Positions 35,752 to 38,978 of a DNA stretch of 40,994 nt are shown here, piece after piece. Made by a program: the position numbers and the translations under genes. This DNA is from a virus (taxonomy: Duplodnaviria > Heunggongvirae > Uroviricota > Caudoviricetes). The notes beneath the pieces were generated by a model. It saw only the letters and a list, made by a program, of their open reading frames with translations. It did no database searches and was not told the origin of the DNA. How positions within the stretch are numbered: the stretch's first letter is position 1; every line of letters starts with the position of its first letter. The DNA lies in IMG/VR virus record IMGVR_UViG_2617270943_000004, positions 1 through 40,994 of that record, one strand, 5' to 3'.

Positions 35752-36045
35752 ATGCCAGCGCCTCTGTATGGTGCGGATGACCCGCGCCGCTGTTCCGGCA
35801 ATTCCGTATCGGAGGTGCTGGATAAATTCAGAAAAAACTACGATCGGATAATGTCGCTACCGCAGGAAACGAAAGAGGAAAAGGAATTTCGCCACTGTAT
35901 ATGGCTTGCAGAGAAAGAAGAACGCGAGCGAATTTACCAGACATCAATCCGACCATTCCGCAAAGCCACATATACCCACTTCCCTGAAATTGACCCGCGC
36001 CTGCGTAATTACCGCTCACGCTATGGCGCTATCAGTAATGACTGA
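35752..36045 (+). CDS. Hypothetical protein (ea region)
   Basis: 97 aa; RBS AAGGATT. Confidence 0.4.
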
Positions 36046-36055
36046 GGAATTTACC

Positions 36056-36220
36056 ATGAGAGGACTTGCATACAATCCCGGCATTCTTCCGGCAGAAATG
36101 ATTATTCGCCAACGCGTAAAGCCAATGCCATCGAGAGAGGAATTGCTTAAGAGAAATTCTTTTCCATCAGTGAATCAAAACAAATATCTGAATGCGATGT
36201 GGCGGAGTGGGAAGAAATGA
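36056..36220 (+). CDS. Hypothetical small protein (ea region)
   Basis: 54 aa; GAGGAA RBS; ATGA overlap with the next ORF. Confidence 0.3.
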
Positions 36221-36690
36221 AACAAATTACACTAATTGAGATGGATGGTTTTCTGAAAGGTAAATGCATCCCAAGTGATTTAAAGGTTAACGAAACAAAC
36301 GCTGAATATCTTGTCCGTAAGTTCGGTGAACTTGAATCAAAACTGGAAACGGCGTTGCGGGAGTGTCGTTCTGCTGGAATCACGATTGATAACCTTGAGG
36401 CCAAGTGCGTGGCGCTGGCAGCGGAGAGTGCGGGGATGAAGAAGTTCTGCAAAGACGCTGCATTCGATGCCGATTACGAAGCAGAGCTAGGTATGGAGCG
36501 TGGTGGATTCAGTGATGCGCTTAACGAAATCAAAACCCCAGCCACCGATGCTTTTCTGGCTGAAGTACGGGCGCAGGGCGTGGAGATGGCTATGGAGCAT
36601 ATGCAGTCGAGCGGTTCGTTAACATTTGGAGATTGCTACATATCACTTAACGAGTTCGCCGCAGAGCTTCGCAAAGGAGGCAACCAGTGA
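36217..36690 (+). CDS. Hypothetical protein (ea region)
   Basis: 157 aa from ATG 36217; coupled to neighbours. Confidence 0.4.
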
Positions 36691-37208
36691 GCAAGATTGA
36701 TTATCAAAAGCTTCGTGAAATCGCTGAAAAAACAAAAATTTCTGGTGAAGCACCTGTAATGCCTTTCGATCAGCGAATTAATGCGCTTAACGATTTTATG
36801 AAGCACTTTTCGCCAGATATCGCGCTGGCATTGTTGGATGAACGGGAAAGAAACCTGCAATACATCAAAAGCCGCGATCAGGAGAACGAGGATATTGCGC
36901 TAACGGTAGGGAAGCTGAGAGTTGAGCTGGAAGCCGCAGAGAATAACCTCATTGATAGTGAATGCCATGTTGCTGAACTGGAAGAAGCGCTACGCGATAA
37001 GCAGGCGTTACTTGAAGCATCAGAGAAGCGCATTGCTGAGCTGGAGTTGCGGGAGGTTGTGCTTCCGCAATGCTATAGCATGTTGCATCGCGTCGATTTT
37101 GACGAGCCTTACCACACTGAAATGGTTTACAGGCAGCATCAGGTTCTTGAGGCACTGCACAACGCTGGAATAAACGTCACCGAAGCAGGTAAAGGAGAGG
37201 CATCATGA
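36687..37208 (+). CDS. Hypothetical coiled-coil protein (ea region)
   Basis: 173 aa; GTG start with AAAGGAGG RBS; heptad-like charged region. Confidence 0.4.
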   Translation: MSKIDYQKLREIAEKTKISGEAPVMPFDQRINALNDFMKHFSPDIALALLDERERNLQYIKSRDQENEDIALTVGKLRVELEAAENNLIDSECHVAELEEALRDKQALLEASEKRIAELELREVVLPQCYSMLHRVDFDEPYHTEMVYRQHQVLEALHNAGINVTEAGKGEAS

Positions 37209-37336
37209 GCACTATCACAAGAGAATGGCTGCAGCAGGCTATCAACGATTATGAAAGCGTTCGTGATGAGATTCCTTTCGGGCTTGATGATTACCAGGGG
37301 AATATCCTGGCTGCCCTGCATATCGCACTGGCATAG
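37205..37336 (+). CDS. Hypothetical small protein
   Basis: 43 aa; ATGA overlap with the upstream ORF. Confidence 0.3.
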   Translation: MSTITREWLQQAINDYESVRDEIPFGLDDYQGNILAALHIALA

Positions 37337-37351
37337 CTGGAAGCAGAGCCG

Positions 37352-37714
37352 GTGGCGTGGAAGGTAACATTCACGCAAATTGACCGTGAATATAACACGT
37401 TCACTGGTATGTATTCTGACAAAGCAGAAGTCGAACGGTGGGTGCGGCTGCATAAAGCATGTAATTTTCGGGCAGATATAACACCGCTTTATACCGCCCA
37501 GCAAGTGCCGGTAACTCCGGATGGTTGGATAAGCTGTAGTGAGCGAATGCCGGATAAGTTAATTCCGGTAATGGTCATGTATGAAGACGGTGAGATGTGG
37601 TCTGCAATGTGGAATGGCAATCGCTGGGATGATGGCACCGAATATCCGGATCCGCACTCAGTTACGCACTGGCGTGAAATGCCAGCAGCGCCGAAACAGG
37701 AGGTGAAGTCGTGA
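37352..37714 (+). CDS. DUF551-like protein
   Basis: 120 aa; C-terminal GWISCSERMPDK...W...THWREMPAAP resembles DUF551. Confidence 0.45.
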   Translation: MAWKVTFTQIDREYNTFTGMYSDKAEVERWVRLHKACNFRADITPLYTAQQVPVTPDGWISCSERMPDKLIPVMVMYEDGEMWSAMWNGNRWDDGTEYPDPHSVTHWREMPAAPKQEVKS

Positions 37715-37923
37715 GCAAGCACATCATCAAATATGACTATCGAGAGGGAGTTAAACTTGCAAAGCATGAAATAGAAACGTGGTGCGGACATGCGCCACAA
37801 TTTTCAGACTGGTTGTTTCAGGATGCTCAGCACGCGCTGTTGAGCATTGAGCAGGGAACGCTGCTTGTTCCTTGCAAGAATTGTCTGGCAGCAATCATCA
37901 AAACGGCGCAGGAGGTGAAGTGA
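37711..37923 (+). CDS. Hypothetical protein
   Basis: 70 aa; GTGA overlap upstream; AGGAGGTGAAG RBS. Confidence 0.4.
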   Translation: MSKHIIKYDYREGVKLAKHEIETWCGHAPQFSDWLFQDAQHALLSIEQGTLLVPCKNCLAAIIKTAQEVK

Positions 37924-38201
37924 TGGACTCCTTCGCGGAATATACGATCATTGACTGGATAGCCTTCCTTCAAGTTTTGCTCATCTGGTTTTATATGGCT
38001 TACAGGAGTGGACAGTGGATTGTCAGTGTAGCCTGTAGCAAGGGATGGCGTTGGTGGAACAGAAAGAATAAAAAAGCACTGGCATTGGATTCGTTTTACG
38101 AAGCATTCAATCTTAACAGCCTTCAGCCTGGTTCTGTCATTGTAGTCACCACTCAAAGCGGCATGACCATTCAGATTCATAAACCAAAAGAGGAAAAATG
38201 A
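37923..38201 (+). CDS. Hypothetical membrane protein
   Basis: 92 aa; N-terminal hydrophobic segment IIDWIAFLQVLLIWFYMAY. Confidence 0.4.
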   Translation: MDSFAEYTIIDWIAFLQVLLIWFYMAYRSGQWIVSVACSKGWRWWNRKNKKALALDSFYEAFNLNSLQPGSVIVVTTQSGMTIQIHKPKEEK

Positions 38202-38287
38202 TGTGGCCTATATGTGTTAATTGCGGACGGATGTGCCTATCTGGATGGTGCCGAAAGTGCGACAAATGCACGAAGCAAAGACAATAA
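38198..38287 (+). CDS. Hypothetical Cys-rich micro-protein
   Basis: 29 aa with seven Cys (CxxC...C...C..C..C); ATGA overlap upstream. Confidence 0.25.
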   Translation: MMWPICVNCGRMCLSGWCRKCDKCTKQRQ

Positions 38288-38359
38288 CAATCCTCGCACT
38301 CGCGGGGATTTCTTTTATCTGAACTCGCTACGGCGAGTTTTGTTTTATGGAGATGATAA

Positions 38360-38527
38360 ATGCACTTCCGAGTCACAGGTGAATGGAATGGAGAGCCATT
38401 CGACAGGGTTATCGAAGCAGAGGACATCAACGACTGCTATGACCACTGGATAATATGGGCGCAGATAGCACATGCAGACATAACCAATATTCGAATTGAA
38501 GAACTGAAAGAACACCAAGCCGCCTGA
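38360..38527 (+). CDS. Hypothetical small protein
   Basis: 55 aa; GGAG RBS; stop lies inside a terminator hairpin. Confidence 0.3.
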   Translation: MHFRVTGEWNGEPFDRVIEAEDINDCYDHWIIWAQIAHADITNIRIEELKEHQAA

Positions 38528-38541
38528 TGGCGGTTTTTTTA
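38519..38541 (+). terminator. Intrinsic terminator
   Basis: GCCGCC-TGAT-GGCGG followed by TTTTTTT. Confidence 0.55.
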
Positions 38542-38554
38542 TTGGAGACAAGAA

Positions 38555-38899
38555 ATGTCAGATTTGGCTATGAAGGTTTTGAAATGGCAATCGACTGGCG
38601 ATGTTGGCATCAGTAGCGCAACTCTTGCCTCAATCGCATGTGGCCTGAAAAAGAATATCTATGGTCATCACTTCGGCGCTCCACATGATGCAGCCGATTT
38701 CCGGCGATGCGTTGCACTTGTTGAGCAGATTCCAGAAATCAGAGATTCATTCGACAAGGTTGCAAAGCGCGTTCCGGCATTCAAAGGAATCCTCAACGAA
38801 TGGGATTCACTCGTTGCTCTGTTGAAGTCTGAAATGAAGACGTACGGGAACAAAGCACCAGAGACTTACAGAAGAATCAGCGAGCTACGCAAGGACTAA
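38555..38899 (+). CDS. Hypothetical protein, terminator-insulated (moron-like)
   Basis: 114 aa; GGAG RBS; terminator-like hairpins on both sides. Confidence 0.45.
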   Translation: MSDLAMKVLKWQSTGDVGISSATLASIACGLKKNIYGHHFGAPHDAADFRRCVALVEQIPEIRDSFDKVAKRVPAFKGILNEWDSLVALLKSEMKTYGNKAPETYRRISELRKD

Positions 38900-38955
38900 C
38901 CCGCCTCACACTCGATGAGGCATTTTCATTTATCAAGATATCCAGACCTACCATC

Positions 38956-38978
38956 GCCGCATCAATGCGGTTTTTTTA
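38956..38978 (+). terminator. Weak intrinsic terminator
   Basis: Short stem CCGC/GCGG then TTTTTTT. Confidence 0.4.

Follow-up and report, generated by a model that had tools for sequence, protein, structure and literature searches.

In the N-dependent pL operon, the stretch from the recombination genes to xis is occupied by the exo-xis region (orf60a ... ea22, ea8.5, orf55) in phage lambda and by the ea region in P22; both consist of small, non-essential and mosaic open reading frames (ORFs) with internal terminators (PMC8614690; PMC4195576). The exo-xis region is transcribed early from pL, and its internal terminators were predicted from sequence (PMC4195576; PMC8614690). In lambda, xis directly follows orf55, whereas phages 434 (GenBank M60848; OL657226, CPT_434_34 and CPT_434_33) and HK022 (HK022_33 and HK022_32) carry a further gene, ORF114, behind ORF55; the 434 record of the int-xis region (M60848) annotates both ORFs, a terminator t-L4 upstream of ORF55 and a terminator t'-I downstream of ORF114. 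Here we describe positions 35752-38978 of the virus record IMGVR_UViG_2617270943_000004 (the whole stretch analysed, 40,994 nt long, is called the window), which comprise a same-strand array of small ORFs (35752-38527) followed by a gene for a 114-aa protein, the counterpart of ORF114. A sequence-only reading of this stretch had described an ea-type region of at least ten tightly coupled small ORFs that ends in a terminator-insulated, moron-like gene, possibly expressed independently in the lysogen.

Place and content of the accessory block

We consider it likely (probability about 0.7) that 35752-38978 forms the accessory, distal stretch of the pL operon and corresponds to the lambda exo-xis and P22 ea regions. 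It is flanked upstream by recombination genes, here erf and an SSB-like gene (34710-35728), and downstream by xis; it shares their strand and lies behind pL, nutL and N. Because a pL-like promoter, the boxB of nutL and N all lie upstream on this strand, we read the plus strand from ~32.6 to 39.2 kb as an N-dependent leftward early operon. The perfect lambda boxB matches the window twice (0.02 matches expected), the second match being nutR on the opposite strand, and a CI-like repressor gene also lies upstream of the region on the plus strand. The product of 32986-33312 starts with MDAQTRRRERRAEKQAQWKAANPLLVG (MDAQTRRRERRAEKQAQWKAANPLL), and from this N-terminal sequence we take it to be lambda N. 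An Rfam search of 32400-39800 returned no match. The hallmark families of the exo-xis and ea regions, Ea22/Ead (PF13935), EaA/DUF551 (PF04448) and Orf55 (phrog_676; DNA alignment to lambdap35), are all present and are shared with these two regions (PMC8614690; PMC4195576). The ea-type assignment made from the sequence alone thus holds, with Abc2, DUF2737, Ea22-like, EaA/DUF551, DUF4752, Orf55 and ORF114 proteins encoded in the region, and so does the DUF551-like protein named in it. Compared with lambda, the window has erf, an SSB-like gene and abc2 in place of exo, bet and gam, and it lacks orf60a, orf63, orf61 and orf73 of the exo-xis region. Accessory blocks of this kind are ordinary in lambdoid phages and have been sequenced and annotated before; as an instance of textbook lambdoid mosaic architecture, the region adds little.

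By analogy with lambda biology and the published description of its exo-xis region (PMC4195576), the block would be dispensable and its N-dependent transcription would be delayed early. From the anatomy of the sequence we infer that pL would be repressed in the lysogen and that, upon induction or infection, N-modified RNA polymerase from nutL would pass the five rho-independent terminators (GC-rich stem-loop plus U-tract) predicted at 38289-38971; Orf55, ORF114 and the excisionase would then be transcribed as delayed-early genes. Within the block, translation may be coupled through overlapping stops and starts (ATGA at 36217, 37205 and 38198; GTGA at 36687 and 37711; TGATG at 37923). This overlap was described as nearly universal, which is true of six of the nine junctions from abc2 to Orf55, the other three ORFs being separated from their predecessors by gaps of 10, 15 and 72 nt. 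Likewise, the array of small ORFs is real, but Orf55 does not belong to a tightly coupled series of ten, because the 72-nt gap before it contains a strong tandem terminator, t-L4, that had been overlooked.

The ORF114 cassette and its terminators

ORF114 is an optional cassette at a t'I-type terminator position before xis. When the window is aligned with HF4s, Dewey, lambda, 434 and HK022, the cassette stands out as an indel of 441 bp: HF4s, Dewey and lambda lack ORF114 and share the flanks at 90-98% identity. On the left, homology with the phages without ORF114 ends after the hairpin at the Orf55 stop (GCCGCC-TGAT-GGCGG-T6-7-ATT), and on the right it resumes past a second, similar hairpin (GCCGCATCAATGCGG-T7-ATT); the extra 441 bp hold GGAGACAAGAA-ATG, ORF114 and a hairpin of its own. 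The order and spacing of ORF55 and ORF114 are the same in 434 and HK022 (94-96% nucleotide identity to the window over the segment), and the terminators annotated in 434 recur in the window; the hairpin between the two ORFs is not annotated as a terminator in the 434 record. In the siphoviruses 434 and HK022, a lambda-type xis-int module adjoins the segment, whereas in the window, in a P22-like podovirus prophage, this place is taken by a TorI/IntS module of the KplE1/HK620 type.

Related loci were counted in IMG/VR, where 80 loci carry ORF114 at 97-100% identity. The upstream hairpin is of the Orf55-end type in 43 of them and of the second t-L4 type in 37, and in all 80 the T-tract of the terminator ends at most 12 nt before the same Shine-Dalgarno sequence. 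The 3' hairpin of the cassette could be assessed in the 79 loci with enough downstream sequence and is retained in 74; at least four different modules follow it. In 57 of the 80 loci, the next gene encodes a recognised excisionase, of the TorI type in 40 and of the lambda type in 17, and begins 108-139 nt downstream; other modules take this place in the rest. In Salmonella P22-like phages, the integration module (int) comes straight after the ORF114 homologue. Among complete Escherichia coli genomes, the cassette was found in 914 of 5,426 (17%), with up to four copies each, and the exact combination Orf55-ORF114-torI in 106. The joints fall exactly at the boundaries between T-tract and Shine-Dalgarno sequence, a clean example of module exchange in front of different excisionase types. 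More generally, the accessory region is a mosaic of interchangeable cassettes, whose joints coincide either with terminator T-tracts and Shine-Dalgarno sequences or with conserved linkers.

The terminators can be described somewhat more exactly than before. Between 34000 and 40994 we counted 19 terminator-like sites, compared with 7.5 +/- 3.2 in shuffled sequences. The tandem hairpins upstream of Orf55 are conserved in lambda, 434, HK022 and HF4s. The intrinsic terminator noted in front of the 114-aa gene is indeed there (a GC-rich hairpin and a T7 run), at the position that lies directly before xis in lambda, and the gene has its own ribosome-binding site (RBS), as claimed, with a GGAGA Shine-Dalgarno sequence 6 nt before the ATG. 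Behind the gene, where one terminator had been seen, there are two hairpins.

The hairpin before ORF114 carries the Orf55 stop codon in its loop (GCCGCC-TGAT-GGCGG), and this geometry is kept in the window, lambda, 434, HK022, HF4s and Dewey. Since the stop sits in the loop, a terminating ribosome might aid read-through, and one could imagine an attenuator in which the ribosome stopping at the Orf55 TGA masks the 5' arm, so that read-through to ORF114 and xis requires ongoing translation of Orf55. We regard such an attenuator as quite improbable: its basis is purely geometric, in 37 of the 80 loci ORF114 follows another terminator and Orf55 is missing, and N antitermination already accounts for the read-through. 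For Orf55 itself (89-93% amino-acid identity to the copies of 434, HF4s, Dewey and HK022; the lambda gene was aligned at the DNA level), the literature offers only a speculative model as a T7 Gp2-like modulator of RNA polymerase (PMC8614690; PMC4195576).

ORF114 is most likely an early gene that depends on N antitermination, if its surroundings are a guide. The alternative proposed earlier was that it is expressed independently in the lysogen, and as far as signals in the DNA can tell, this is not borne out. A consensus scan of 34514-40994 gave no sigma-70-like promoter site of at least 9/12, and a relaxed scan upstream of ORF114 gave matches of at most 8/12, all inside Orf55 and thus upstream of the terminator. 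In all 80 loci, the T-tract ends so close to the Shine-Dalgarno sequence that a promoter would not fit between it and the gene. A promoter dependent on CII was considered as well and rejected, as TTGY-N6-TTGY was not found upstream of ORF114; such sites occur only in other places, one of them the position in the cII-like gene where pRE is expected. The base composition of ORF114 (47.2% G+C) is that of the prophage (46.9%).

The moron concept reportedly goes back to HK97/HK022-type phages and to Juhala and Hendrix. Like those morons, ORF114 is a single extra gene that is flanked by terminators, one of them its own downstream terminator, and that is present in some genomes and missing from close relatives; unlike them, it has no promoter that the scans detected and no deviant composition, and it lies in the early operon rather than in the late region. 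What remains of the moron-like arrangement is therefore a discrete, optional cassette bracketed by terminators, without a promoter signal of its own. That ORF114 is nevertheless an autonomous unit expressed from the repressed prophage, to a benefit such as phage resistance, seems unlikely to us. It is true that this single-gene insertion has its own RBS and 3' terminator, is isolated by a terminator from the genes upstream, is strongly conserved and is common in E. coli; but besides the crowding of terminator and Shine-Dalgarno sequence and the unremarkable composition, there is no match to a PADLOC model, and members of the family occur in virulent phages, which never form lysogens. The distinction between an optional terminator-flanked cassette and an autonomously expressed moron avoids mislabelling ORF114 as a lysogenic-conversion gene.

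The ORF114 family and its possible role

The protein matches phrog_1229 over its full length (residues 1-114; E 1.8e-51) and is 95.6-96.5% identical in amino-acid sequence to ORF114 of 434 (GenBank M60848) and gp32 of HK022. The earlier proposal would have been weakened by a reading frame that is not conserved in related prophages; the frame is kept, all 83 copies compared (58 nucleotide alleles, 21 protein variants) being intact. Among the variable sites, 41 of 61 are third codon positions, and the median pairwise ratio of nonsynonymous to synonymous substitution rates (dN/dS) is 0.07; ORF114 is thus under strong purifying selection. An exhaustive profile search, counted in clusters at 50% identity, reached 2,849 clusters at E <= 0.001 and 653 at E <= 1e-10, and seven residues (S20, P43, D45, D48, R51, C52 and W83), all present in the window protein, are invariant across 79 diverse members. 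ORF114 is a predicted small, all-helical cytoplasmic protein, modelled by AlphaFold2 (AF2) with a predicted local distance difference test score (pLDDT) of 93.8. The idea that it is a chance ORF between two terminators, to which the lack of Pfam, NCBIfam and PDB matches might lend itself, can hardly be maintained in view of the dN/dS ratio, the third-position bias, the 83 intact copies, the size of the family with its invariant residues, the confident model and the strong Shine-Dalgarno sequence; a spurious ORF was rejected on conservation and dN/dS.

The profile and structure searches that had been proposed for the protein were run and gave neither a Pfam model nor a structural relative. ORF114 and 79 diverse relatives had no match in Pfam, NCBIfam, PADLOC or the PDB sequences, nor had the family profile in the PDB sequences, and a BFVD search with ORF114 returned only uncharacterised phage proteins. 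Among the ORFs of the region tested with PADLOC (E <= 0.01; abc2 was left out of the set), no defence match was obtained. A scan of the genome contigs yielded a single locus. A literature search on ORF114 and ORF55 found nothing relevant; the two treatments of the exo-xis region (PMC8614690; PMC4195576) do not include ORF114, nor does the screen of 200 accessory genes by Silas et al. (bioRxiv 10.1101/2023.04.06.535777). Carried by 17% of complete E. coli genomes and part of a very large family without functional annotation, ORF114 is a reasonable target for accessory-gene functional screens.

Homologues occur in prophages of Cronobacter, Citrobacter and Salmonella, in phages of Yersinia, Klebsiella, Arthrobacter and many Vibrio, and in a Mu-like Haemophilus phage. 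In virulent Nonanavirus and Sashavirus phages, they lie inside tightly coupled early operons beside an RdgC-like gene. Clustering of the neighbour genes in 55 diverse viral loci revealed no recurrent partner. A lytic-cycle role in host interaction is favoured over a benefit to the lysogen or a role in excision, since homologues occur in virulent phages, the architecture is a stand-alone one and no PADLOC model matched. From context and analogy, ORF114 is probably a stand-alone accessory factor of the lytic cycle, which would serve host takeover or counter-defence by binding a protein of the host or of a competitor; lysogenic conversion or defence is probably not its purpose. A defence gene was also considered on its own and rejected, as no model matched and the family is present in virulent phages.

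A different reading starts from the neighbourhood. The gene stands a short and nearly constant distance upstream of the excisionase start in most of the 80 loci, in front of TorI-type and lambda-type xis alike, and is the last gene before int in Salmonella P22-like phages, as might be expected of an accessory of the site-specific recombination module, e.g., a modulator of the expression or activity of excisionase or integrase. We think this improbable, because the gene is dispensable to such modules (lambda, HF4s, Dewey and the KplE1 element of E. coli K-12 have the same xis modules without it), because distant homologues are found in virulent phages and at a variety of loci where neither an integrase nor xis is a conserved neighbour, and because insertion of a cassette at the terminator before xis explains the adjacency equally well.

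Several points weigh against our interpretation of ORF114 as an N-dependent early gene with a lytic-cycle role. A weak or non-sigma-70 promoter inside Orf55 may lie beyond the reach of consensus scans. Termination by the hairpins and its suppression by N are carried over to this phage from its sequence anatomy and from lambda and would have to operate here as they do there. The molecular role proposed for ORF114 is drawn from context and analogy only, with no hint from a family, a fold or a partner, and its constant place beside xis could reflect a functional link to excision.

Some members of the family depart from the usual architecture. In a Pfam scan of 20 longer members, no recurrent fused domain was found and the N-terminal extensions were heterogeneous, with one exception: a protein of 558 aa from a 1.9-kb metagenomic contig (P0176, locus L163) combines a CCA-adding-enzyme/poly(A)-polymerase head, an RNA-binding part and an HD domain with a C-terminal ORF114-family domain. 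As a single occurrence this fusion is a lead only, a possible hint of a tRNA-related role. Chimeras are common among the database proteins (P0015, P0017, P0033, P0034, P0051, P0052 and P0063): a portion of ORF114 is combined with portions of Kil, Erf, Ead/Ea22 or a DUF550-type pyrophosphohydrolase, suggesting deletions that recur in decaying prophages, or joints of recombination, with an end point inside ORF114. The distant members P0079, P0080, P0081 and P0091 have C-terminal extensions with a similar basic-Ala-Ala tail (RRAA, KRAA, RKVA), and P0067 contains two tandem ORF114-family domains.

Features of the window, the prophage and its integration site

The features are collected in Table 1. 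The array opens with a known anti-RecBCD gene, abc2. Directly upstream of it, the gene at 35345-35728 encodes a 127-aa protein that ends in DDSIPF, an SSB-like acidic tail. It had no match in an NCBIfam search; its counterpart is annotated as ssb protein in HF4s, and HK022 has a gene of equal length in the same position described as "likely analog of P22 Abc1".

Table 1. Coordinates of the features in the window and the basis of their assignment.
Feature	Position	Strand	Basis
attL core, left prophage border	1069..1089	+	21-bp exact repeat (CTGCAGGGGACACCATTTATC) of 39297-39317; 3' end of tRNA-Arg CCU, argW-type
nutL boxB (GCCCTGAAGAAGGGC)	32703..32717	+	exact lambda boxB; downstream of pL-like promoter near 32620
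lambda-type N antiterminator gene (presumed)	32986..33312	+	start of product; nut sites present
abc2, anti-RecBCD protein 2	35752..36045	+	PF11043 E 6.1e-64; phrog_656
DUF2737 54-aa protein	36056..36220	+	PF10930 E 2.6e-31
157-aa protein, EaE-like	36217..36690	+	phrog_614; HF4s annotation EaE; ATGA overlap with previous stop
Ead/Ea22-like coiled-coil protein	36687..37208	+	PF13935 E 1.3e-21; GTGA overlap
EaA-family/DUF551 gene with in-frame amber codon at 37334-37336	37205..37714	+	PF04448 E 6.9e-18; both halves in same frame
70-aa protein	37711..37923	+	phrog_4090 E 2e-44
DUF4752 92-aa protein	37923..38201	+	PF15944 E 2.4e-36
29-aa six-Cys micro-protein (CxxC-x3-C-x4-CxxCxxC)	38198..38287	+	Cys count; homologues in virulent phages
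tandem intrinsic-terminator hairpins, t-L4 of phage 434	38289..38340	+	-25 kcal/mol, z -5.4; U-tracts
Orf55 (homologue of lambda lambdap35)	38360..38527	+	phrog_676 E 6.7e-38
terminator hairpin + T7, Orf55 stop codon in loop	38517..38543	+	GC-rich hairpin; left border of ORF114 cassette
ORF114 cassette: Shine-Dalgarno GGAGACAAGAA, 114-aa gene (38555-38899), 3' hairpin (38903-38921)	38544..38921	+	phrog_1229 E 1.8e-51; indel borders
3' hairpin of ORF114 cassette	38903..38921	+	hairpin
second terminator, t'-I of phage 434; joint with excisionase module	38956..38978	+	hairpin 38956-38971 + T7 run
excisionase, TorI (AlpA-type recombination directionality factor, 66 aa)	39023..39223	+	100% aa identity to E. 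coli K-12 TorI; RefSeq name torI
attR core, right prophage border	39297..39317	+	second copy of 21-bp CTGCAGGGGACACCATTTATC

Two genes of the array had been described differently. The ORFs of 43 aa (37205-37336) and 120 aa (37352-37714, DUF551) were taken for two genes and are one EaA-family gene split by a TAG codon. Where the window has TAG, Dewey and the related locus L030 have TCG (Ser), and both EaA of HF4s and gp23 of Dewey read ALASLEAEP here (...IALA-S-LEAEP...); a mosaic joint lies at ~37325, about 9 nt 5' of the amber codon. The interrupted gene may be a true pseudogene or the result of a sequencing error. The 29-aa peptide was said to have seven Cys and has six. Homologues with ~70% amino-acid identity, five Cys kept and the same stop/start overlap are found in the virulent phages Deseoctovirus C1 and Skatevirus KFS-SE2, and in JEP4 the peptide is degenerate, three of the six Cys being replaced (two by Arg, one by Phe). 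Judged by its sequence, it is probably a real zinc-knuckle-like micro-protein that has been left unannotated in many records.

The window contains an apparently full-length P22-like (Lederbergvirus-type) prophage of ~38 kb. The closest DNA matches to the studied region are Lederbergvirus coliphages (e.g., HF4s, Dewey, Gally, JEP4 and HZ41), and also lambdoid siphoviruses and Shiga toxin (Stx) phages. The prophage is bordered by a 21-bp attachment (att) sequence, CTGCAGGGGACACCATTTATC, which begins with the 15 final bases of a tRNA-Arg(CCU) gene (1009-1083). The integrase ORF (1209-2402) adjoins the attL copy and the TorI-type excisionase adjoins attR, so that an argW att site is combined with int and a TorI-type recombination directionality factor at opposite ends of the prophage, as in the integration module of the KplE1/HK620 type. 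The same layout is found in HK620/Sf6-type phages and in KplE1/CPS-53 of E. coli K-12 (yfdC-argW-intS ... torI, with a tRNA-Arg(CCU) att site, the integrase by attL and TorI by attR). KplE1 of K-12, however, is a defective remnant without Orf55 or ORF114.

Just 5' of the torI start and ~300 bp inside attR, positions 38988-39003 are an exact 16-nt copy of the argW T-arm (TTGCAGGTTCGATTCC; 1054-1069). The copy is also present in HF4s and Dewey, and it may be the relic of an att site or a chance match (~0.5 expected). The host gene that adjoins attR (39747-40994, minus strand) encodes a LacY-family-like permease, which we take to be sucrose-permease-like (CscB). Because K-12 has dsdC on that side of argW, the host is not K-12-like at this locus. 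When 38340-39240 was compared with complete E. coli genomes, the best match was only 98% identical.

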